40,000 nt of DNA. Source: Pseudomonas sp. GTDB lineage: Bacteria > Pseudomonadota > Gammaproteobacteria > Pseudomonadales > Pseudomonadaceae. This document shows, in pieces, positions 4,450 through 23,419 of this stretch (position 1 is the stretch's first letter; every line of letters begins with the position of its first letter). The DNA is taken from assembly GCA_034676485.1 (NCBI GenBank), contig JAUCCC010000015.1, forward strand, positions 962,355 to 1,002,354, read 5' to 3'. Below the pieces are notes generated by a model. The model saw nothing but the letters and a program-made list of their open reading frames with translations. It was not told where the DNA came from and searched no databases. The position numbers were made by a program, and so were the translations under genes.

Positions 4450-4747
4450 GCAAGCTTGAAGCTGTTTACCTATACAGCCTATTAGGGCTGATATGCGTTT
4501 ATATGCTCGTTTGCAAGCTTAGAGATGCTTATTTTCCTGCGGTGTTTTAATTTAAAGCTATAAATATCAATGAGTTATAAGTTATGCGGGCGGGATAGTG
4601 TGCATGCCGTTAGCATGATAGGGGCATGCTCGAATTGCTGCTGGGGAATGCCTTGTCTTTTGTGATAAAGGCTTTAATATTCAGGACGTTATATTAATTT
4701 ATAGTTAGTGTGAACGATCCGCAAATCGAGCATGCTTACTAATAAGC

Positions 4748-4754
4748 GTTAGGC
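4748..4754 (+). repeat. Lone GTTAGGC core site at the start of the first cassette (relic attI or attC R' box)
   Basis: AAGCGTTAGGCAC sits 36 nt upstream of ATG 4790. I could not identify a convincing R''/L'' partner upstream. Confidence 0.4.
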
Positions 4755-8486: not shown

Positions 8487-8563
8487 AGCTAATCGGGTAG
8501 CCGAGGGTTTCTAGCCCTCAGCCCCCACAACACCCTGCATGCGGCTCCGCACAGGGCGTTTCA

Positions 8564-8922
8564 CTAAGAATGGTGAAGCTTAATCCAACCATCGCGCAAT
8601 GCGTACAGACCCTGAGATTTTAAGTAAGCATTTGATAATGCCTGATTAATTCCCGGAGTTTTAGAGCTACGCCATGGGCCTTTGCTGGTGATACCGCATG
8701 CAACTGCAGCTTGCACATGAACGCCCAACCGCATTAAGTTTCTTACTTTAGTGCGCGGCTTGCGCCACTGTCGCCAATAGGCCATTCGCACTCTGCGCCG
8801 GATCCAATGATCCAGTTCAACGCAGTGCTGATAGCCACTGGCAATACCAAAGTAGTTTATCCAGCCGCGTAAATATTGGCTGACCTTAAACAGCTGGTAT
8901 TTCATTGACACGCCCCAGTTAC
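8564..8922 (-). pseudogene. Group II intron RT/maturase, C-terminal fragment (copy A)
   Basis: It matches residues ...SMKYQLFK(V/I)SQYLRGWINYFG...KLHHS of the intact copy B ORF. It is cut off at the IS66 insertion point. Confidence 0.85.
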
Positions 8923-9005
8923 GTAAGCGCCCTTAAATCAGCATCTTTTAAGCCAACCTATACAGCTTCACACTAATACCTGTCTTTTTCAAAGAGGTAT
9001 TAGCG

Positions 9006-9311
9006 ATGAAATCACAAGAACGTCAGCAGTTTTGGCAGCAGCATGTTGATGCTTGGCAGGCATCGGATTTATCCGGTGCTGCGTTTTGCAAGCAGCATGA
9101 TTTGAATTATGCACAATTTAATTATTGGCGTAGAAAGTTTCAGCCGGTAGACGCGGCTGCAAAGTCTGCTGGCTTTGCTCAGGTTACGCAGCTAGCTACC
9201 TCTGCTAGCAGTGCTGATGGGTTGGCTGTTCATCTGCCCAGCGGCATAAGTTTTTCTGGAGTGAATGCAGGTAATCTCGATGTAGTACTGGCGATGCTGA
9301 GGCAGTTGTAA
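9006..9311 (+). CDS. tnpA: IS66-family accessory protein TnpA
   Basis: 101-aa ORF, first gene of the IS66 module. Its stop overlaps the tnpB start (TAATG). Confidence 0.75.
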   Translation: MKSQERQQFWQQHVDAWQASDLSGAAFCKQHDLNYAQFNYWRRKFQPVDAAAKSAGFAQVTQLATSASSADGLAVHLPSGISFSGVNAGNLDVVLAMLRQL

Positions 9312-9679
9312 TGAAGGTGCGTTATTTACGGCCAGCCAAGCAGATGCCGGAAATTTATCTGTACCGTGCGCCGGTGGATTTTAGGAAGCAAGCCAATGGC
9401 TTGGCTTTGCTGGTTGAGCAAGAACTTGGCCACAATCCGTTCAGTGGTGCGCTGTATGCCTTTACCAATCGCCAGCGTAATAAAATCAAGTGCGTGATGT
9501 GGGAAGACAACGGTTTTGTCATGTATTACAAGGCATTGGCAGAAGAGAAGTTTAAGTGGCCTAAGCCCGCTGATGAGTTACTGTCTTTAACCGGTGAGCA
9601 AATAAATTGGCTGTTAGATGGCTACGATATTAGTCTGTTTAAAGGCCATAAAAAACTACAATACGATAGCTTAGGATAG
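9311..9679 (+). CDS. tnpB: IS66-family Orf2 protein TnpB
   Basis: The typical IS66 Orf2 sequence is present (IYLYRAPVDFRKQANGLALLVEQELGHNPFSGALYAFTNRQRNKIKCVMWEDNGF). Confidence 0.8.
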   Translation: MKVRYLRPAKQMPEIYLYRAPVDFRKQANGLALLVEQELGHNPFSGALYAFTNRQRNKIKCVMWEDNGFVMYYKALAEEKFKWPKPADELLSLTGEQINWLLDGYDISLFKGHKKLQYDSLG

Positions 9680-9747
9680 CTTGATTTTACTGGGTTTTAG
9701 CTGCTTTTAAGGGTGCTTTTGATGGTGGGTTTTGCTATAATTTCGGC

Positions 9748-11348
9748 ATGAAAAAACAGCCTAAAACCACCATAAAAACCCCTGATTTAAGCGGCCTTAG
9801 TGCCGCTGAATTACGTTTGGTTGTGGCACAGTTTCAAGCTGTTATTGATGAGCAGAACACTGCTTTGCAAGATGCCCATCGCCGTATCGAACTACTGGAA
9901 GAAATGAACCGCCTGCTGAAAACACAAAAGTTCAGTGCCAGCAGCGAAAAGTCTAAGTTTCAGCTCAACCTCTTTGATGAATCCGAGCTCGAAGCCCAGC
10001 TCGATGAATTGTTTGATACTTTGCCTGAAACGTCTGATGAAGGTGAAGGCATTGCTCAGCACCGTAAAGAGCGCCAGACACGTAAACGTGGTTTTTCTGC
10101 AAGCCTTGTGCGTGAACGCATTGAACACAAGCTCACTGAGCTGGAAAAAGCCGGTGCTAGTAAAACCTTCTTCACTAAAGTAAAAGAAGAACTGCACTAC
10201 ATTCCAGCGCAACTCAAAGTGCTGGAGCACTGGCAAGAAAAAGCCGTGTTCACGGCTGAAACTGATACACAAGACGAGCAGATGGTAGCCGCACAGCGCC
10301 CCGTACATCCTTTTGGCAAGTGCTCAGTTACCACCGCCTTGATTGCCCACGTTATTGTCGATAAATACCAGTACGGTATGCCGCTATATCGCCAAGAAAG
10401 TAAATTTAAAGGCTTAGGCCAACCGGTTTACCGCAACAACATGGCGCAGTGGTGTATACGCTTTGGTGGTGCAGCCAAACCCTTGCTGCAGCTGATGCGT
10501 GAGGTGCAAAATAGCGGTAATTACTTGCAAGCGGACGAAACCCGTCTGCAAGTGCTTAAAGAAGACGGTAAAACAGCGCAATCGGATAAATGGATGTGGG
10601 TTATCCGTGGCGGACCGCCCGAAAAACTCAGCGTGCTCTTTGAATATGATCCTTCGCGTGCAGGCAGTGTGGCTGTGCGCTTGCTGGATGATTTTAAAGG
10701 CGTGCTGCAAGCCGATGGTTTTTTCTGGTTATAACGCAGTATGCAAAGCCAACTCGATTACGCGCATCGGCTGCTGGGACCATGCACGGCGTAAGTTTGT
10801 TGAAGCAGATAAAGGCGCTAATCCCAAGGCTAAAACCAAGAAAGGCACCGTAAGCAAAGCCGATGTAGCGCTCAGTTACATCCGCAAACTCTATCGCATA
10901 GAAAGCAACATAGCTGACAAAACCGATGAAGAGCGTTTAAAAGCACGCCAAGAAATCAGCCTGCCAATACTCAACGAGTTTAAACAATGGCTTGAGAAAA
11001 ACGCTGGCAAAGTGATGAAAGGTAGCGCGCTCAGAAAAAGCCATCGACTACACCTTAAATCAATGGCAATACCTCATTGGCTACTGCGAACGCGGCGACC
11101 TGATGATCAGCAATATCATGGCCGAAAATGCCATCCGTCCCTTCGCCATTGGCCGCAAAAATTGGTTGTTTGCTGACACCCGTAAAGGCGCAGAAGCCAG
11201 CGCCGCTTGTTACTCACTGATAGAAACCGCCAAAGCTAACAACCTCGATCCGCAAAGCTACATCAAGCATATTCTTGACCACATAACTGTCGCTGACACA
11301 TTAGAAAAACTAGAAGCTCTGCTGCCCTGGAATGTAGAACTGGATTAA
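9748..11348 (+). pseudogene. tnpC: IS66-family transposase TnpC, interrupted by two +1 frameshifts
   Basis: Three ORF-track pieces (9748-10734, 10499-11176, 11103-11348) join into one ~533-codon reading. The shifts lie at a T6 run (10719-10724) and an A5 run (11035-11039). Removing one base at each restores ...LQADGFSGYNAV... and ...GSALRKAIDYTLNQWQYL... Confidence 0.8.
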
Positions 11349-11392
11349 GCTAAGTAGCCGTTCTGCAAGGGTGCTGATTTAAGGGCGCTTAC

Positions 11393-12418
11393 CCAGTTAC
11401 GATTCGTGAGTTTGCGAACATTCTGCTTAAACTTCAGCAGCGTTTTCGGGTGCCAATGAATGCGGTTCGCCTTGAACGTAAAGCCCAAGAACTGGCTTTC
11501 ATTGGTTTTAACCACACGACTTTTGTCAGTGTTGACCACTAACTTCAAACGGCTTTGCAAGTACTGACTGATACTGCGCAACACGCGCTCTCCAGCTCGC
11601 TGGCTCTTCACTAGAATCGTGAAATCATCCGCGTAGCGGGCAAACTTATGACCGCGTTTTTCAAGTTCTTTATCCAAAGAGTCGAGCATGATATTCGCCA
11701 GTAACGGCGACAATGGCCCACCTTGCGGTACACCCACTCGACTCTCACCTTTGAACTGATTATCGATAAACCCAGCTCTCAGGTAACGTTTAATCAGTCT
11801 AAGCAGACGTTTGTCTTTCACCTTGTCGCCAAGGCGCGTCATCAGTAGATCGTGATTAACTCGGTCAAAGAACTTCGACAGATCAACATCCACCGCGAAG
11901 CGGCGTCCTTCCTTGATGATGCTCTGTACCTGCTTAACCGCTTGCTGCCCATTACGACCTGGACGGAATCCAAAACTGTGTTCAGAAAACTCAGGGTCGA
12001 AAATAGGTGTTAATACTTGGGTAATGGCTTGTTGGATTACACGATCAGTAACGGTTGGAATACCCAGCTGACGAGTGCCGCCATCTGGTTTAGCTATTTC
12101 AACACGCCTTACCGGTGAGGGTTGATAACAGCCTGTTACCAGTTGTTGTTTCAATGCTTTCCAGTTGCCGGATCTTACCCAAGCGGGGAATTCATCGATG
12201 GTCATGCCATCGATGCCAGCGGCCCCTTTATTGGCTCGAACGCGTTTCCATGCCGCAGAGAGGTTATCTTCCTGCAGCACGTGCTCGAATAGATCGTTGC
12301 TAAAGGCTGGCTTCATATCGCTACGCTGAGTCACGTCATCGCCGGACGGCGTTCGTGTGTTCAAGTGTGACAAGGCTCCTCCTTTGTTCTTAATGTTCAG
12401 GCCTTCACCGTGTCCCAA
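11393..12418 (-). pseudogene. Group II intron RT/maturase, N-terminal fragment (copy A)
   Basis: It is identical to copy B apart from a few substitutions, up to ...RKLTNRNW. The frame then runs into the IS66 right end. Confidence 0.85.
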
Positions 12419-12895
12419 CCATTACGATGGGCGTTTGGCTACTATGCCGTCTGCTGACTTCTGCTTAATCACTCACAGAGTTGCCTCTGTTCGCGCTATC
12501 GGTTTGCATCTAATTCGCTCTCCAAGGTCGATACATTCCTTAGAGCCAAGGCACTTATTAACCAGAGCCTCACTGGTGAATTACCGATCGCTTGTTAAGC
12601 AGATCTCCCCAGATAAGAGCATGTACTGTCACTGCACTGCTGCATCATTTACGGTGGTCGTTAGATCACATGGCTTCGTTGTCTTGTGCCAACTCGCCTT
12701 CAGCCTACGCCTCATATGATGTTTTTGTTCATCAGCTCGCAGCTTTGCGTCCGGCTTCCTCCAGACAACTCCTCGCGGAGCTGCCCTTGCCATTCGCTAG
12801 TAGTTAACATCTAATAACGATCATAAATCGCTAAGGATGGTGACCTTCCTACAGAGGACTTTCACCTCATTAGTTCATGCCCATGCTGGGCGTAC

Positions 12896-14807: not shown

Positions 14808-15275
14808 ATGAAATCCGATGCTGAACTATCAAAATGCAGAACGTATCGCTATGCGTTATGGAGAACATGGGACGAATCAAAACCTTTTGCTATGTTTGTC
14901 GGCCTTAACCCGTCAACAGCCGACGAGCTCGAAGACGATCCCACAATAAGACGTTGCATAAACTTCTCAAAGCTCTGGGGTTACGGCGGCTTATGCATGG
15001 TCAATTTATTTGCATATCGCGCAACAGATCCAACCGCACTATTCCTAGTCCAAGACCCAATCGGCCCAGAAAATGATAGGTGGCTGCGTAAGCTTTCAGA
15101 AAACGCCGGCATCATCATTGGGGCGTGGGGAAATACTGGCGCACATCTAAATCGTTCAAGCGACGTCAGAAAAATGTTTAAAGAACTCCACTGCCTAAAA
15201 TTAAACAAAACAGGTGAGCCTGCACATCCTCTATACCAACCAAACACAGCTACTCCTATTCCAGTTGGTATATAA
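14808..15275 (+). CDS. DUF1643-family protein (cassette 5, gene 2)
   Basis: The sequence CRTYRYALWRTWDESKPFAMFVGLNPSTADELEDDPTIRRCINFSKLWGYGGLCMVNLFAYRATDP matches my recollection of the DUF1643 pattern. The stop TAA lies inside R'' of attC_5. Confidence 0.7.
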   Translation: MKSDAELSKCRTYRYALWRTWDESKPFAMFVGLNPSTADELEDDPTIRRCINFSKLWGYGGLCMVNLFAYRATDPTALFLVQDPIGPENDRWLRKLSENAGIIIGAWGNTGAHLNRSSDVRKMFKELHCLKLNKTGEPAHPLYQPNTATPIPVGI

Positions 15276-15340
15276 CAACTGGTTCAATTCGCTCGCTTTG
15301 CTCACTGGGACGGGCTAAAGCCCGCCCCTTAACCAAACGT
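15270..15340 (+). repeat. attC_5, 5' part (R' completed by TGCAC at 17229-17233 after intron C)
   Basis: ATATAACAACTGGTTCAA...GGGACGGGCTAAAGCCCGCCCCTTAACCAAACGT|. The L''/L' arms AACTGGTTCAA / TTAACCAAACG pair. Joined exons give R' GTTGCAC. Confidence 0.6.
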
Positions 15341-17228
15341 GTGTGCCGGGCATGGCACTTAACTAGCGAGGTGCAAGTCCTCGTGCCAGGTATTCGCAGA
15401 GCCGAAGGTTAGCGAAAGGACAAGGGCGTTGTCGCGAGGCAGGGTCTGAAGGAAGTCCAACGCGAAATCGCGGGGCGATGAACAAGAACTCAATATGAGG
15501 TGTGACATATTCGGGGCCAGCGGGCACGTGACTGTTAAGCCCTCCATCTGCAACTGGAATATGTTTTATAAATTGAGCGTCTACGCGAGGAAAGTTAAGT
15601 GTCTTACCCCGGGAGGTCTGCAGTGTGTTGAAGGATCAACTGACAATGGAGCAATCGATTGTGACCGCATTGCAGAAATCAGCAGAAGGCATACGACTGC
15701 ATGGATGCAGGAGGTAGAGCAATGCATGGAGCAATTGCCGAGTAGGCCGCACTCTTGCAGCTGAAGGCCTGAACAAATCACGGAAAGTACTCGCTGGGGA
15801 AGTGTTTCTGAATGGCACCTGTTAAGCAGTTATCACTGCCTCTGGAAAGTGCAGAGGGTGAATCAGAAATGGGAAACCCAGTTGAACCAAAATCCACCTT
15901 TTGTTCATCATTGATTGGCCGTGTAATAGATAGGAATAATCTACTGCGCGCGTTGAAACAAGTTCGCCGCAATAAAGGTGCTCCGGGCATCGACGGCATG
16001 AATGTTGATGACCTCCTTGATCATCTTAAGCAACACTGGCCGCAGATTCGGCAACAACTCATCGACGGGCACTACAAGCCCAAGCCGGTTAGACGTGTTG
16101 AAATTCCAAAGCCAGATGGTCGCAAGCGCAAGCTGGGCATCCCGACTGTATTGGATCGATTTATACAGCAGGCCATTGCTCAGGTGTTGCAAGAAGAGTG
16201 GGATGTTGATTTCCATGATCAGAGTTATGGTTTTCGACCCAATAGAAATGCACACCAAGCCATGCGCTACGCACAAAAAACAGTACGGCAGGGCTATAGC
16301 TGGACTGTTGATTGTGACTTGGAAGCTTTCTTTGATGGTGTAAACCATGACTTGCTTATGGAACAGCTCAAAGCAAAACACCAAGACCGACAATTGCTTA
16401 GGCTGATCAACCGCTATCTAAAAGCGGGAATCCAGATAAATGGCGTAACACAAACCAGTACCGAAGGCGTGCCACAGGGTGGGCCGTTGTCACCGGTACT
16501 CTCGAATATTGTGTTGAACCAGTTGGACTGGGAGCTAGAACGTCGGAAGCACCGTTTCGTTCGCTATGCTGATGACTTTGTTGTGTTTGTTAAAAGTCGA
16601 GAAGCGGGTGAGCGCGTGATGAAAAGTCTGCAGCGCTATATTGGCGACTCGCTACGGCTCAAAGTGAATACCCAAAAGAGTGCAGTAGATCGGCCATGGA
16701 AACGAACCTTTCTTGGCTTTACGTTCAGTCAACGAGACCAAAGAATCAAGGTGGCAGATAAATCGCTACTGAAGCTCAAAGCTACGGTTAAATTGCTGAG
16801 CCGTCGAACAAGAGGCCATTCACTCAAACACATTATCGCAGAGCTAAGAAAGTCCCTGCTTGGTTGGAAAGCGTACTTCGACATAGCTGAAGTGCTGAGC
16901 CCTCTGCGTGATGTGGATAAATGGATTCGACGACGATTGCGTAGTTATATTTGGAAGCAATGGGGGCGCAAAGGCTATCGGATGCTTAGGCGCTTGGGTG
17001 TTGATCGATGGCTGGCATGGAATACTGCTAAGTCGGCTCATGGCCCGTGGCGATTAAGCGCAAGTCCTGCCCTTTACCGAGCGCTACCAAACAGATACTT
17101 TAAGAACTTGGGGCTGCCAGAACTGGCGGCAAGATGAAATTTAAAGAGATTTGAACCGCCGTGGTACGTGACCCGTATGCCCGGTGGTGTGGGAGGAGAG
17201 ACGTCGTGAGGCGTCTCCCTATCCCGAT
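15341..17228 (+). mobile_element. Group II intron copy C (class C-like, divergent from A/B), sense-oriented in the array
   Basis: The 5' end GTGTGCCGGGCATGGCACTTAACTAGCGAGGTGCAAGTCCTC parallels copy B. A domain V-like hairpin and a domain VI follow the ORF, ending CCCTATCCCGAT. There is an internal RT ORF. Confidence 0.8.
15812..17137 (+). CDS. Group II intron reverse transcriptase/maturase (no endonuclease domain)
   Basis: RT motifs are present (KGAPGIDG, VRRVEIPKPDGRKRKLGIPTVLDR, YGFRPNRNAHQA, VPQGGPLSPVLSNI, RYADDFVVF), with a maturase X region (LLGWKAYF). At 441 aa there is no room for an En domain. Confidence 0.9.
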   Translation: MAPVKQLSLPLESAEGESEMGNPVEPKSTFCSSLIGRVIDRNNLLRALKQVRRNKGAPGIDGMNVDDLLDHLKQHWPQIRQQLIDGHYKPKPVRRVEIPKPDGRKRKLGIPTVLDRFIQQAIAQVLQEEWDVDFHDQSYGFRPNRNAHQAMRYAQKTVRQGYSWTVDCDLEAFFDGVNHDLLMEQLKAKHQDRQLLRLINRYLKAGIQINGVTQTSTEGVPQGGPLSPVLSNIVLNQLDWELERRKHRFVRYADDFVVFVKSREAGERVMKSLQRYIGDSLRLKVNTQKSAVDRPWKRTFLGFTFSQRDQRIKVADKSLLKLKATVKLLSRRTRGHSLKHIIAELRKSLLGWKAYFDIAEVLSPLRDVDKWIRRRLRSYIWKQWGRKGYRMLRRLGVDRWLAWNTAKSAHGPWRLSASPALYRALPNRYFKNLGLPELAAR

Positions 17229-17233
17229 TGCAC

Positions 17234-18545
17234 ATAGCCGCTACGCGGCAGAGTATTAGTATTAGAGTTGTGTATATAACAACTGAGGACAAAGGATATG
17301 TCCAGTCGAGCCATACAAAATCTGTTTGCTTGTTACTCTGAGCAACTTAAGAATACTAAGCAACCGCTTAAAAACCTCAAAGCGATTGATGCGCTAACCC
17401 ATTGCCGTACACGTGCATTGGGTGCCAGTTATTACCGCTGCAAGTTAAATCATGCCGAGATAGAGCAACTGCACTCGTGTCGCCATCGCAGCTGTTATGT
17501 CTGCGCCCATAAACAACGTCTTGATTGGATTGAGAGGCAAAAAGCGCGGCTGCTCGACGTGCCGCACTTTCATGTAATTTTCACCTTGCCGCATGAGTAC
17601 TTATCGCTCTGGCGTTATAACGAAGCACTATTTGCGCGGATTCTATTTAAAGCCAGCCAAGAAACATTACTGCAACTACTCGCGCAGCAGCGCCATGGCG
17701 GTGTCACGCCCGGAATTTTAATAGCGCTGCATACGTGGGGGCGACAGCTCACACTCCATCCACATACTCATTGTTTGGTGACTGCCGGTGGTCTTGACTC
17801 AAGCAATGACTGGAAGGCGCTGGGGGATTACCTCGTGCCCAGCACGGTGATTCGTTCGGTCTATCGTGGCAAGCTGCAATCTTTTATTAAAGCGGCGTTT
17901 GATGCAGGAGAACTGATCTTGCCGCCAACGATGTCGGCAGCGCAGTTTTGGTCGATGTATCGGAGTGTGTACAAAAAGCATTGGTGTGTGCGTATTGAAG
18001 AACGTTATGCGCATGGTAAAGGTGTGGTGCTTTATCTGGCGCGTTATTGTAAAGGTGGGCCTGTTGATCCGCGACAATTAAAACAAATGACTGCCGACGT
18101 TGTAACAATGAGCTATCTGGATCATCGTGATAAACGCATCAAACAGCAACGGCTCAAGCCGATGGATTTTATAACGCGGCTACTCCAGCACGTACCGCCC
18201 AAAGGCATACATACCATTCGGTATTACGGGCTGTATGCTTCGGCGAGTAGGTTACGGTATGAACGATGCAAGGAAGAGTGCGGCACGGTCGAGTCTATGC
18301 TGCATGCAAGTAGTGTCGATAGGCTATCCATGGTAGTTTATTGCAAAACCTGTGGCGGGCCAGCGCAGTTAAGTCGTCGCTGGTGGGCACGTCGGTCAAA
18401 AGGAATTTCCATTAATAAAGAAGCGCTGAGCATTTGTGTCAGCGGCTCTGTACAACAAGTCGATGAACCGCTCCTTGCGGGTGGTTTTTACAATACGTCC
18501 TAAAGCTCCGAATGGATCTTTTTTTTGGTGAAGCAAGGACGGTTA
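17234..18545 (+). mobile_element. IS91-family element (ends not resolved)
   Basis: The transposase gene fills the interval between the 3' end of intron C and the GTTGGGC core at 18553. I could not recognise oriIS/terIS-type ends by eye, so the coordinates are approximate. Confidence 0.4.
17298..18503 (+). CDS. IS91-family (HUH, Y2) rolling-circle transposase
   Basis: It has an N-terminal Cys/His zinc-binding region (HCRTRALG...YRCKLNHAEIEQLHSCRHRSCYVC), an HUH-like LHPHTHCLV motif and the tyrosine pair YLARY. Confidence 0.85.
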   Translation: MSSRAIQNLFACYSEQLKNTKQPLKNLKAIDALTHCRTRALGASYYRCKLNHAEIEQLHSCRHRSCYVCAHKQRLDWIERQKARLLDVPHFHVIFTLPHEYLSLWRYNEALFARILFKASQETLLQLLAQQRHGGVTPGILIALHTWGRQLTLHPHTHCLVTAGGLDSSNDWKALGDYLVPSTVIRSVYRGKLQSFIKAAFDAGELILPPTMSAAQFWSMYRSVYKKHWCVRIEERYAHGKGVVLYLARYCKGGPVDPRQLKQMTADVVTMSYLDHRDKRIKQQRLKPMDFITRLLQHVPPKGIHTIRYYGLYASASRLRYERCKEECGTVESMLHASSVDRLSMVVYCKTCGGPAQLSRRWWARRSKGISINKEALSICVSGSVQQVDEPLLAGGFYNTS

Positions 18546-18552
18546 TCTAAGC

Positions 18553-18559
18553 GTTGGGC
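18553..18559 (+). repeat. GTTGGGC core site opening the amidase cassette
   Basis: CTAAGCGTTGGGC has the same ending as attC_3. Its 5' partner is not identifiable and has probably been displaced by the IS91 element. Confidence 0.4.
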
Positions 18560-21395: not shown

Positions 21396-23419
21396 ATCGG
21401 GTAGCCGAGGGTTTCTAGCCCTCAGCCCCCACAACACCCTGCATGCGGCTCCGCACAGGGCGTTTCACTAAGAGTGGTGAAGCTTAATCCAACCATCGCG
21501 CAATGCGTACAGACCCTGAGATTTTAAGTAAGCATTTGATAACGCCTGATTAATCCCCGGAGTTTTAGAGCTACGCCATGGGCCTTTGCTGGTAATACCG
21601 CATGCAACTGCAGCTTGCACATGAACACCCAGCCGCATTAAGTTTCTTACTTTAGTGCGCGGCTTGCGCCACTGTCGCCAATAGGCCATTCGCACCCTGC
21701 GCCGGATCCAATGATCCAGCTCAACGCAGTGCTGATAGCCACTGGCAATACCAAAGTAGTTTATCCAGCCGCGTAAATATTGGCTGATCTTAAACAGCTG
21801 GTATTTCATTGACACGCCCCAGTTGCGATTCGTGAGTTTGCGAACATTCTGCTTAAATTTCAGCAGCGTTTTCGGGTGCCAATGAATGCGATTCGCCTTG
21901 AACGTAAAGCCCAAGAACTGGCTTTCATTGGTTTTAACCACACGACTTTTGTTAGTGTTGACCACTAACTTCAAACGGCTTTGCAAGTACTGACTGATAC
22001 TGCGCAGCACTCGTTCTCCAGCTCGCTGGCTCTTCACTAGAATCGTGAAATCATCCGCGTAGCGGGCAAACTTATGACCGCGTTTTCCAAGTTCTTTATC
22101 CAAAGAGTCGAGCATGATATTCGCCAGTAACGGCGACAATGGCCCACCTTGCGGTACACCCACTCGACTCTCACCTTTGAACTGATTATCGATAAACCCA
22201 GCTCTCAGGTAACGTTTAATCAGTTTAAGAAGACGTTTGTCTTTCACCTTGTCGCCAAGGCGCGTCATCAGTAGATCGTGATTAACTCGGTCAAAGAATT
22301 TCGACAGATCAACATCCACCGCGAAGCGGCGTCCTTCCTTGATGATGCTCTGTACCTGCTTAACCGCTTGCTGCCCATTACGACCTGGACGGAATCCAAA
22401 ACTGTGTTCAGAAAACTCAGGGTCGAAAATAGGTGTTAATACTTGGGTAATGGCTTGTTGGATTACACGATCAGTAACGGTTGGAATACCCAGCTGACGA
22501 GTGCCGCCATCTGGTTTAGCTATTTCAACACGCCTTACCGGTGAGGGTTGATAACAGCCTGTTACCAGTTGTTGTTTCAATGCTTTCCAGTTGCCGGATC
22601 TTACCCAAGCGGGGAATTCATCGATGGTCATGCCATCGATGCCAGCGGCCCCTTTATTGGCTCGAACGCGTTTCCATGCCGCAGAGAGGTTATCTTCCTG
22701 CAGCACGTGCTCGAATAGATCGTTGCTAAAGGCTGGCTTCATATCGCTACGCTGAGTCACGTCATCGCCGGACGGCGTTCGTGTGTTCAAGTGTGACAAG
22801 GCTCCTCCTTTGTTCTTAATGTTCAGGCCTTCACCGTGTCCCAACCATTACGATGGGCGTTTGGCTACTCGGCAATTGCTCCATGCATTGCTCTACCTCC
22901 TGCATCCATGCAGTCGTATGCCGTCTGCTGAAATCTCATGGATGGAGTGAATGCAAAGAATGTTGGAACATTTTTGGTCTTCTGCTTAATCACTCACAGA
23001 GTTGCCTCTGTTCGCGCTATCGGTTTGCATCTAATTCGCTCTCCAAGGTCGATACATTCCTTAGAGCCAAGGCACTTATTAACCAGAGCCTCACTGGTGG
23101 ATTACCGATCGCTTGTTAAGCAGATCTCTCCCCAGATAAGAGCATGTACTGTCACTGCACTGCTGCATCATTTACGGTGGGCCGTTAGATCACATGGCTT
23201 CGTTGTCTTGTGCCAACTCGCCTTCAGCCTACGCCTCATATGATGTTTTTGTTCATCAGCTCGCAGCTTTGCGTCCGGCTTCCTCCAGACAACTCCTCGC
23301 GGAGCTGCCCTTGCCATTCGCTAGTAGTTAACATCTAATAACGATCATAAATCGCTAAGGATGGTGACCTTCCTACAGAGGACTTTCACCTCATTAGTTC
23401 ATGCCCATGCTGGGCGTAC
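21396..23419 (-). mobile_element. Group II intron copy B (class C / attC-type), intact, antisense to the cassettes
   Basis: It has the same ends as copy A. Removing 21396-23419 restores TCATA|ACAATCAACTGCACAGCGACCG, an attC of the attC_8 family. The RT ORF is intact. Confidence 0.85.
21468..22844 (-). CDS. Group II intron reverse transcriptase/maturase (start codon uncertain; maximal ORF given)
   Basis: RT motifs are present (KGAAGIDG, VRRVEIAKPDGGTRQLGIPTVTDR, FGFRPGRNGQQA, VPQGGPLSPLLANI, RYADDFTILV), with a maturase region (LRGWINYFG). There is no En domain. Possible starts are TTG 22844, an internal TTG after AAGGAGG, or ATG 22742. Confidence 0.9.
   Translation of the reverse strand: MGHGEGLNIKNKGGALSHLNTRTPSGDDVTQRSDMKPAFSNDLFEHVLQEDNLSAAWKRVRANKGAAGIDGMTIDEFPAWVRSGNWKALKQQLVTGCYQPSPVRRVEIAKPDGGTRQLGIPTVTDRVIQQAITQVLTPIFDPEFSEHSFGFRPGRNGQQAVKQVQSIIKEGRRFAVDVDLSKFFDRVNHDLLMTRLGDKVKDKRLLKLIKRYLRAGFIDNQFKGESRVGVPQGGPLSPLLANIMLDSLDKELGKRGHKFARYADDFTILVKSQRAGERVLRSISQYLQSRLKLVVNTNKSRVVKTNESQFLGFTFKANRIHWHPKTLLKFKQNVRKLTNRNWGVSMKYQLFKISQYLRGWINYFGIASGYQHCVELDHWIRRRVRMAYWRQWRKPRTKVRNLMRLGVHVQAAVACGITSKGPWRSSKTPGINQALSNAYLKSQGLYALRDGWIKLHHS

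Follow-up and report, generated by a model that had tools for sequence, protein, structure and literature searches.

Introns of integrons and the locus studied

Reviews describe the group II introns of integrons as antisense elements on the bottom strand, which block cassette transcription and carry outward promoters of their own. Class C (group IIC) introns inserted in attC sites (IIC-attC introns, S.ma.I2 type) are reportedly the subject of work by Quiroga in 2008 and by Leon and Roy in 2009-2010, and terminator-targeting class C introns such as B.h.I1 and GsI-IIC are said to have been treated by Robart, Seo and Zimmerly in 2007. Here we study intron C, a class C intron in a 40,000-nt stretch of a Pseudomonas sp. 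genome (assembly GCA_034676485.1, contig JAUCCC010000015.1, positions 962,355 to 1,002,354 of the forward strand; the whole stretch is called the window). Intron C is inserted in the site attC_5 on the same strand as the cassette genes. It very probably belongs to a distinct IIC sub-lineage that targets the attC top strand, with the strand choice set by exon-binding site 1 (EBS1).

Integron-borne IIC introns were found in the bottom strand, opposite to cassette transcription (Léon et al. 2010, PMC3001079). The consensus of their intron-binding sites IBS1/IBS3 is TTGT/T for IIC-attC introns, with one exception cited (Sonbol & Siam 2021, PMC7923331). Two sense-oriented cases have been published: an 'unusual' group IIC intron in a class 1 integron of Enterobacter cloacae (Rodriguez-Martinez, Nordmann, Poirel, J Bacteriol 2012;194:150, as reported via PMC7923331) and an intron noted in 2022 on the Shewanella algae plasmid pKC-Na-R1 (PMC9229058).

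Insertion site and boundaries

The intron and the parts of its host site are as follows (positions are those of the window).

15341..17228, + strand: intron C, class C (IIC) group II intron, 1888 nt, 5' GUGUG...AU 3' (sequence, Rfam, ends common to about 30 relatives)
15270..15340, + strand: 5' part of attC_5, top strand, which is the 5' exon of intron C (sequence, DNA fold, family copies)
15270-15276, + strand: R'' box ATATAAC, followed by the spacer AAC
15280-15287, + strand: L'' box TGGTTCAA
between L'' and L', + strand: variable hairpin GGGACGGGC-TAAA-GCCCGCCCC
15329-15335, + strand: L' box TTAACCA, followed by the spacer AAC
15339-15340, + strand: GT, the first two bases of R'; IBS1 is ACGT at 15337-15340
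17229..17233, + strand: TGCAC, which completes the R' core and opens the next cassette; IBS3 is T17229
14808..15275, + strand: DUF1643 gene, last gene of the cassette of attC_5 (Pfam PF07799, E 1.7e-49; open reading frame (ORF) list)

On the + strand the junctions read ...CCCCTTAACCAAACGT|GTGTGCCGGGCA ... CTCCCTATCCCGAT|TGCACATAGCC at 15340/15341 and 17228/17229 (the vertical bar marks the junction), or in a longer view ...GGGACGGGCTAAAGCCCGCCCCTTAACCAAACGT|GTGTGCCGGGCATGG...GTCTCCCTATCCCGAT|TGCACATAGCC. Joining the exons gives AAACGT|TGCAC and hence an R' box GTTGCAC; the expected ligated-exon sequence is ...CCAAACGU|UGCACAUAGCC. The ends carry an ambiguity of 1 nt (the T at position -1 against the last T of the intron); both the GUGYG...AY consensus and the alignment to the Rfam model settle it. 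Two further copies of intron C in the same genome lie in another attC and read ...GAAGCGT|intron|TATACGC, the similarity of about 30 relatives ends at the identical two points, and uninterrupted sites read ...CCAAACGTTAGGC in copies of the attC family and ...GGGGCGTTGCACATAGCC at a junction on contig C29. The agreement of the boundaries is far beyond chance, and the coordinates 15341-17228 (+) given in the initial annotation are exact.

We regard attC_5 as a genuine attC because it belongs to an arrayed, conserved family with a completed R' and has an uninterrupted junction paralogue on contig C29. A 72-nt part of it was found at 91-97% identity in 102 of the 201 genomes of the same bacterial family. 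The sites of this attC family (~76 nt) often occur in tens of copies per genome, in arrays with a spacing of a few hundred to ~1500 bp, and the uninterrupted ones read ...CCAAACGTTARRY. In the 19 copies that we inspected, each followed a different sequence and ran uninterrupted into ...CCAAACGT-TAGGC, TATGT or TAGAT, with R' = GTTARRY. The inner hairpin of the family shows a compensatory CG-to-GC change, and in the DNA fold of attC_5 the arms CAAC/GTTG and TGGTT/AACCA pair. The site forms an imperfect palindrome R''-L''...L'-R' whose cores are AAC/GTT and whose R''-L'' arm has additional bases, it stands at the 3' end of a cassette (the stop codon TAA of the DUF1643 gene, 15273-15275, lies inside R''), and it is arrayed. 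Its bottom strand reads CCAGTTGT|TATATA. The attC_5 pattern with at most 3 mismatches matched only attC_5 itself in its own genome. For eleven attCs (60-88 nt) the MAFFT alignment gave no common structure and RNAalifold no pairs. Our crude regex/Smith-Waterman attC finder was too unspecific and served as a pointer only.

The array has at least 14 attCs in the region from ~4750 to ~28800. Each of them reads ...TAACAA...GCGTTA... on the + strand, which also carries the ORFs and is therefore the array's top strand. On this strand intron C cuts the R' box of attC_5 at GT|T; the conventional integrase crossover G|TT lies one base further 5'. The family copies agree with this orientation, so that both the sense insertion and the position of the cut had been read correctly from the sequence at the outset. 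The earlier caveat that the 5' exon hairpin might be an ordinary terminator unrelated to an attC is answered by the membership of attC_5 in the arrayed family.

Ribozyme and reverse transcriptase

The following parts of the intron were identified.

15428..15602, + strand: core of domain I, Rfam RF02001 (group II D1-D4), 121.9 bits
15524-15531, + strand: EBS1 hairpin loop GCACGTGA inside the domain I core; EBS1 is ACGT at 15526-15529
15812..17137, + strand: intact ORF of the intron-encoded reverse transcriptase (RT)/maturase, 441 aa, YADD present (RVT_1 9e-40, GIIM 6e-14)
17154..17228, + strand: domains V and VI, RF00029 alignment ending exactly on the terminal AU

As a group II intron of class C, intron C is complete, and it has the same orientation as the cassettes. 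Its ribozyme has the 5' GUGYG and 3' AY ends, here with AU at the 3' terminus, a domain V, and a domain VI in which CCUAUCCC contains a bulged A; the 3' end CCCTATCCCGAT is kept in all relatives. Domain V starts with CCGCC, which in the RF00029 alignment puts CGC in the triad position, as is typical of class C. The RF00029 match was obtained at a relaxed threshold with 24.8 bits; the gathering score is 40. The protein combines RT and maturase (X) domains, and a Pfam search of its 441 aa returned RVT_1 and GIIM only and no endonuclease or nuclease domain. Its closest solved relatives are the GsI-IIC RT (1e-125) and the E. rectale IIC maturase (1e-98), compared with 7e-40 for LtrA (IIA). A hairpin lies upstream at all sites of the lineage and only positions -4 to +2 are conserved (29 sites), as for class C targets, which are defined by a DNA stem-loop, then a short IBS1 and IBS3, and no IBS2/EBS2 pairing. 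As intron C is sense to the cassettes, a read-through + transcript carries it as a true intron that could splice out, and the intron may therefore be non-polar in array transcripts. No terminator-like site was seen on the + strand within intron C, which is weak evidence.

Proposed strand choice by EBS1

The two antisense introns of the window allow a direct comparison.

21396..23419, - strand: intron B, a classic IIC-attC intron, 5' exon TTGT|, EBS1 loop GCACAAGA
8492-12895, - strand: intron A, same type as B, in R'' of another attC and broken in its RT gene by an IS66 element
9006-11176: IS66 genes within intron A (Pfam DDE_Tnp_IS66 on 9748-10734)

Introns A and B cut the complement of R'' at TTGT|T on the bottom strand, and intron C is their mirror image, as had been proposed. 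The RT of B is 98-99% identical to those of antisense introns of class 1 integrons, and all class 1 integron relatives of B (RT 70-99% identical) are antisense. For the 5' end of A and B we tried the boundary GTGTACG and rejected it: TTGT|GUACG restores the xxTAAC cores, aligns without gaps with the GUGUG of C and fits the EBS1 ACAA.

According to the Rfam alignment the loop of the domain I hairpin is GCACGUGA in every member of the sense clade, whereas it is GCACAAGA in introns A and B. The middle four loop bases are complementary to the end of the 5' exon and covary with it across five intron lineages:

sense clade (intron C): EBS1 ACGU, exon end ACGU, or GCGU with one G-U pair
introns A and B: EBS1 ACAA, exon end UUGU
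Rhizobium (terminator type): EBS1 AGA, exon end UCU
Cupriavidus (terminator type): EBS1 ACA, exon end UGU
Providencia (terminator type): EBS1 AUG, exon end CAU

The stem that closes the loop covaries as well (GCGG/CUGC, GUGG/CCAU, GUUG/CAAC, GCGA/UCGC, GCAA/UUGC). We took the loop as EBS1 because it covaries with the 5' exon ends and its flanking stem covaries too.

The lineage of intron C would accordingly be a IIC sub-lineage specialised on the top (cassette-sense) strand of attC sites. As with other IIC introns that lack an endonuclease, its RNA-protein particle would enter DNA that is briefly single-stranded, by reverse splicing immediately 3' of a folded hairpin, with the attC top strand taking the place of the transcription terminator. 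Two pairings would set the position: EBS1 (5'-ACGU) with the four bases that end the 5' exon (A/G-C-G-U), and EBS3 with the next T. As an attC's top strand ends in ...RCGT|TRRRY and the bottom strand in ...TTGT|TRRRY, the two bases in which EBS1 differs (ACGU vs ACAA) appear to be enough to select the strand.

Replication may contribute to the exposure of the target. The cumulative GC skew of contig C15 has its minimum at ~170-180 kb and is then rising, with positive skew, up to the end of the contig, including the window; this places the cassette top strand on the leading strand, which serves as the lagging-strand template. A cassette top strand on the leading strand is also what has been described for sedentary chromosomal integrons. 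Endonuclease-less introns in general are thought to find single-stranded targets and primers on the lagging-strand template (PMC4424553). Applied to intron C, this would mean that it targets single-stranded DNA at the replication fork.

The sense lineage in other genomes

We scanned species-representative genomes and found 44 loci with RTs 58-99% identical to that of intron C (RT C), in hosts that include Marinospirillum, Denitrificimonas, Pseudomonas, Vibrio, Endozoicomonadaceae, Kistimonas, Parashewanella and Cellvibrionaceae. They represent about 30 independent insertions at RCGT|TA. The site statistics rest on distinct exons only, 29 on the 5' side, to which that of intron C comes in addition, and 33 on the 3' side:

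position -4: G or A in 28/29
position -3: C in 29/29
position -2: G in 28/29
position -1: T in 29/29
position +1: T in 33/33
position +2: A in 29/33

Of the 29 upstream sequences at least 25 resemble an attC and have a YTAACAA start 50-100 nt upstream, and at 25 of 28 loci an ORF on the same strand ends 44-147 nt 5' of the intron. The two further copies in the genome of the window measure 1840 nt, are 96-97% identical to intron C and form an inverted duplication on contig C26. They occupy a canonical 60-nt attC, ...CTAACAAGTCAAAGCAC...GGTGTTTGAAGCGT|intron|TATACGC.

Two clade members were found outside attCs. One in Kistimonas (locus L024) follows a plain terminator and its site ends TTTTGCGT|T (...GCGGGCTTTATTTTTGCGT|T), and one in a gammaproteobacterial metagenome-assembled genome (L017) lies inside an IS110-like transposase gene at ...CAGTCGT|TG. 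On the evidence of these loci the sense clade keeps class C retrotransposition wherever ..CGT|T is exposed, with a hairpin or single-stranded DNA and a short IBS1. A separate observation concerns Denitrificimonas halotolerans (L020, ~1878-2090), where one attC was hit twice: by a B-type intron at R'' (bottom strand, ...GGGCGTAC|ACAAAGC...) and by a C-type intron at R' (top strand, ...TTTTGACGT|GTGTGCC).

The lineage also occurs on plasmids. In PLSDB at least 9 records have a best hit of 60% identity or more to RT C, and at least 183 have one to the RT of intron B (RT B); among proteins, more than 120 clusters are at least 73% identical to RT C. On the Proteus penneri plasmid pPp47, from a silver gull isolate, the order is intI1-blaIMP-4-qacG2-aacA4-(intron)-qacG2. 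The intron (L061, 3578-5417) is sense in the aacA4 attC (...CATGTCAAACGT|TAGATGC) and its RT is 98.9% identical to RT C. V. parahaemolyticus pVb0267 and S. algae pKC-Na-R1 share the order ...cmlA5-blaOXA-10-aadA1-(intron)-qacEdelta1, with an RT 66% identical to RT C and the insertion site ...CTCAAGCGT|TAGATGC, and E. asburiae pOXA436 carries intI1-aadA2-(intron). Clade members in class 1 integrons of plasmid records were always sense to the cassettes. RTs 97-99% identical to RT C were also seen in genomes of Marinospirillum, Denitrificimonas, Pseudomonas and Vibrio. Copies this similar suggest that the intron has moved recently between environmental arrays and an integron of clinical type.

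The initial annotation had presented an intron sense to the cassettes in an attC as new unless databases showed such introns to be common. The number of genomic sites, plasmid records and protein clusters found here speaks against this novelty, and so do the published precedents (PMC7923331, citing Rodriguez-Martinez 2012; PMC9229058).

Phylogeny and origin

We computed a maximum-likelihood RT tree of 35 rows. The outgroups were taken from plasmid records; the protein homologue search gave only relatives of at least 73% identity. The sense clade and the IIC-attC clade each received 100/100 support. Five class C introns from plasmids of Burkholderia, Cupriavidus, Providencia, Rhizobium and Mesorhizobium fall on the side of the sense clade, separated from the IIC-attC clade by a 99/98 branch. 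Reading the ends of four of the five (all but Mesorhizobium) showed that they insert after terminators made of a hairpin plus a T-run, and the same holds for the Alicyclobacillus outgroup. Forcing all attC-targeting introns into a single clade cost 12.9 log-likelihood units (approximately unbiased (AU) test, p = 0.023). RT C is 48% identical to RT B, in line with the earlier estimate by eye of about half.

The tree fits two attC-targeting IIC lineages of independent origin, which would have converged on the attC cores, as was proposed from the window alone; this rests on two separate clades and the AU test, with a small outgroup sample. A wider scenario is conceivable, although we lean slightly against it. 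In this scenario the sense-strand attC introns would be a large clade whose attC targeting evolved independently of the IIC-attC introns, out of terminator-targeting ancestors and through two EBS1 bases tuned to the end RCGT of the attC top strand, and they would live as spliceable, non-polar residents on the lagging-strand template. Recombination between a terminator copy (such as L024) and an attC copy, followed by splicing and reverse transcription, could then join a gene and its hairpin to a GTTRRRY core, a more direct route to new cassettes than in the published bottom-strand model.

A 48-nt block in intron C

One segment sets this copy apart.

15693..15740, + strand: 48-nt insertion ACGACTGCATGGATGCAGGAGGTAGAGCAATGCATGGAGCAATTGCCG in intron C, missing from the 1840-nt relatives

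The block is placed inside the conserved motif GGCAU|AGUAG of the D2/D3 region and is, with 11-18 substitutions, what separates intron C from the 1840-nt copies. Intron B (22870-22917, minus strand) and an intron on contig C23 (~7384) carry an identical block at the matching GGCAT|AGTAG position; the three introns bearing it belong to different lineages and share one genome. It was absent from intron A, from both other C copies and from every relative elsewhere, among them a plasmid intron with an RT 99% identical to that of intron B. The homology flanking it is only ~13 + 5 nt. A site-specific insertion or template switching of an RT between co-resident intron RNAs are possible origins. The RF01998 match scores 28 bits in intron C and 54 bits in the pVb0267 intron, which lacks the block; in the Rfam alignment the block falls as an insertion in a stem-loop (hairpin) of this match.

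Weighing of alternative explanations

Several points weigh against top-strand targeting by a separate lineage. The attC status of attC_5 rests on family homology and architecture, and domain V/VI stays under the Rfam gathering threshold (24.8 vs 40 bits). The tree holds only six non-attC IIC introns, with the best plasmid hits picked by their similarity to C, and the group for the AU test was named after the tree had been seen, with a p value that is only moderate. Introns A and B lie on the opposite strand of the same array, which makes the replication-strand argument no strict rule. Among the C copies only the one in the window bears the D2/D3 insertion, which lowers its Rfam match, and this copy may be impaired. 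The last point leads to an unlikely alternative: intron C could be a dead passenger, its ribozyme disabled by the block, which neither splices nor moves and is polar junk fusing two cassettes. The restriction of the block to this genome, its place within a conserved motif and the drop in the RF01998 score would fit such a loss. However, the block also occurs in intron B, whose RT ORF is intact, and the alignment places it within a stem-loop. Moreover, the RT ORF, EBS1, domain V/VI and both ends of intron C are intact, and the rest of the intron differs from relatives that look mobile in 11-15 substitutions only. This copy may be active at present.

Two further explanations concern the site itself. 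A terminator-targeting IIC intron could have landed by chance behind the GC-rich hairpin GGGACGGGC-TAAA-GCCCGCCCC, the attC being incidental. The nearest outgroup introns do insert after hairpin-plus-T-run terminators, and L024 and L017 show clade members after a plain terminator and inside a gene. Yet the clade's 29 independent sites include at least 25 that are attC-like, each with the intron at GT|T of R', among them the textbook attCs of aacA4, aadA1 and aadA2 in class 1 integrons of clinical plasmids. No T-run follows the hairpin of attC_5, and the conserved EBS1 ACGU matches the conserved end RCGT of the attC top strand. We consider such a chance landing very improbable. Still less credible is the view that attC_5 is inverted relative to the rest of the array and carries a common IIC-attC intron (S.ma.I2 type) in its bottom strand, in which case nothing would be mirrored. 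It gains some appeal from the fact that attCs are imperfect palindromes in which both strands read ...AAC...GTT..., but attC_5 begins at the stop codon of a + strand gene and has its extra (bulged) bases on the 5' arm. In addition, its TAACAAC...AAACGTT matches every uninterrupted family copy and the other attCs of the array. The 5' exon ends in ACGT and not TTGT, the EBS1 is ACGU and not ACAA, RT C falls outside the IIC-attC clade, and the clade members of class 1 integrons are sense to cassettes whose direction is defined by intI1. Top-strand targeting with a strand choice set by EBS1 is thus the reading we adopt.

The array and the downstream unit

The host array of intron C is chromosomal and without an integrase gene of its own: no intI was found in the window. 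At its head we observed an attI-like region (~4450-4754; TACTAATAAGC at 4737-4747, then GTTAGGC), which is homologous to one (C23:341146) beside the genome's sole integron integrase gene (C23:339893-340759). Similar attI-like copies head other arrays at C23:10193, C26:230034 and C29:3. With several attI-like array heads and one integrase gene, the genome therefore holds several attI-headed arrays per single integrase gene.

The 3' side of intron C is taken up by an IS91-type unit:

17229..18559, + strand: downstream unit, the 3' exon context of intron C
17298-18503, + strand: IS91-family transposase gene (Y2_Tnp, Zn_Tnp_IS91)
~18450-18559, + strand: attC-like site that ends the unit, R' GTTGGGC (crude attC scan and sequence)

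On contig C29 the same unit, TTGCACATAGCC..., follows the G of a different, intron-free attC (...GGGGCGTTGCACATAGCC), and the transposase gene behaves as a gene cassette would. The unit starts TTGCACATAGCCGCTACGCGG right after the G of three different attC/attI-like sites in the genome; on contig C29 the positions concerned are 1-140 and 2340-2640, and its left end recurs in genomes of the same genus. In Shewanella, too, an IS91-like element has been reported next to an attC (PMC9229058).

The R' core of attC_5 is split by 1.9 kb (GT from TGCAC), so the bottom strand would be without an R box and the site would no longer fold as a recombination site. The function of attC_5 is probably lost, which would fix the DUF1643 cassette to intron C and the IS91-type unit. 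Annotation pipelines that expect antisense introns or uninterrupted attCs will miss boundaries such as this one and report fused 'cassettes'.

Comparison with known systems

The window holds the sense and the antisense kind in one array and offers a clean contrast: the two strands of a single attC present TTGT|T and RCGT|T, and two class C clades read them with the EBS1 ACAA and ACGU, respectively. The sense lineage is abundant in environmental Gammaproteobacteria, and since a 98.9% identical RT gene sits in the blaIMP-4 class 1 integron of a Proteus plasmid, the intron also marks traffic between chromosomal arrays and clinical integrons. In the literature examined we did not find stated the site rule of the whole lineage, the EBS1 contrast ACGU/ACAA, the placement beside terminator-targeting introns, or the presence of both lineages in one array or in one attC (L020).

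Intron C belongs to a known but little-described kind of intron, the class C introns on the attC top strand, with a cut at GT|T of R' and sense orientation to the cassettes. The introns of pKC-Na-R1, pVb0267 and pOXA436 are alike in that they sit at GCGT|TAGAT of an aadA1 or aadA2 attC, carry the EBS1 loop GCACGUGA and fall in the same clade. Matched against RT C, the pVb0267-type RT and the pKC-Na-R1 intron do not differ in identity, span or score, and intron C shares the 100/100 clade with the pVb0267-type RT, that is, common descent with a published example. The two differ in that an RT only 66% identical places the pKC-Na-R1 type on another branch of the clade, and in that its host is a class 1 integron, whereas intron C occupies a chromosomal ~76-nt attC of an array without an integrase gene. 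As far as the E. cloacae intron of 2012 is described in the paper citing it, it is probably of the pKC-Na-R1 type, judging from its VEB-1-type array.

With the IIC-attC introns (S.ma.I2 type; PMC3001079) intron C shares insertion in an attC, the class C type of ribozyme and RT, a folded attC strand that serves as upstream stem-loop, the GT|T of a core box and only short EBS1/IBS1 and EBS3/IBS3 pairing. In contrast to it, they occupy the bottom strand and the R'' box, lie antisense to the cassettes and are not spliceable from cassette transcripts. Their IBS1 is TTGT and their EBS1 ACAA; introns A and B have TTGT/T, whereas intron C has ACGT/T and its clade RCGT/T. Their RTs form a separate monophyletic clade, with RT B 48% identical to RT C and, given the small outgroup sample, a 99/98 branch in between. 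The terminator-targeting class C introns are the nearest RT relatives outside the sense clade (~50-53% identical; GsI-IIC 1e-125) and have in common with intron C the 5' GUGUGCC, the 3' CCCUAUCCCGAU, the same EBS1 hairpin and insertion just after a DNA hairpin. They differ in using an intrinsic terminator with a T-run, in an EBS1 that fits the T-rich tail and in having no link to cassette arrays. UHB.I2 (group IIB1/CL1; Sonbol & Siam 2021, PMC7923331) also lies sense in a cassette array just downstream of an attC, but it is of class IIB, has other boundaries and occupies no defined position inside the R' core.

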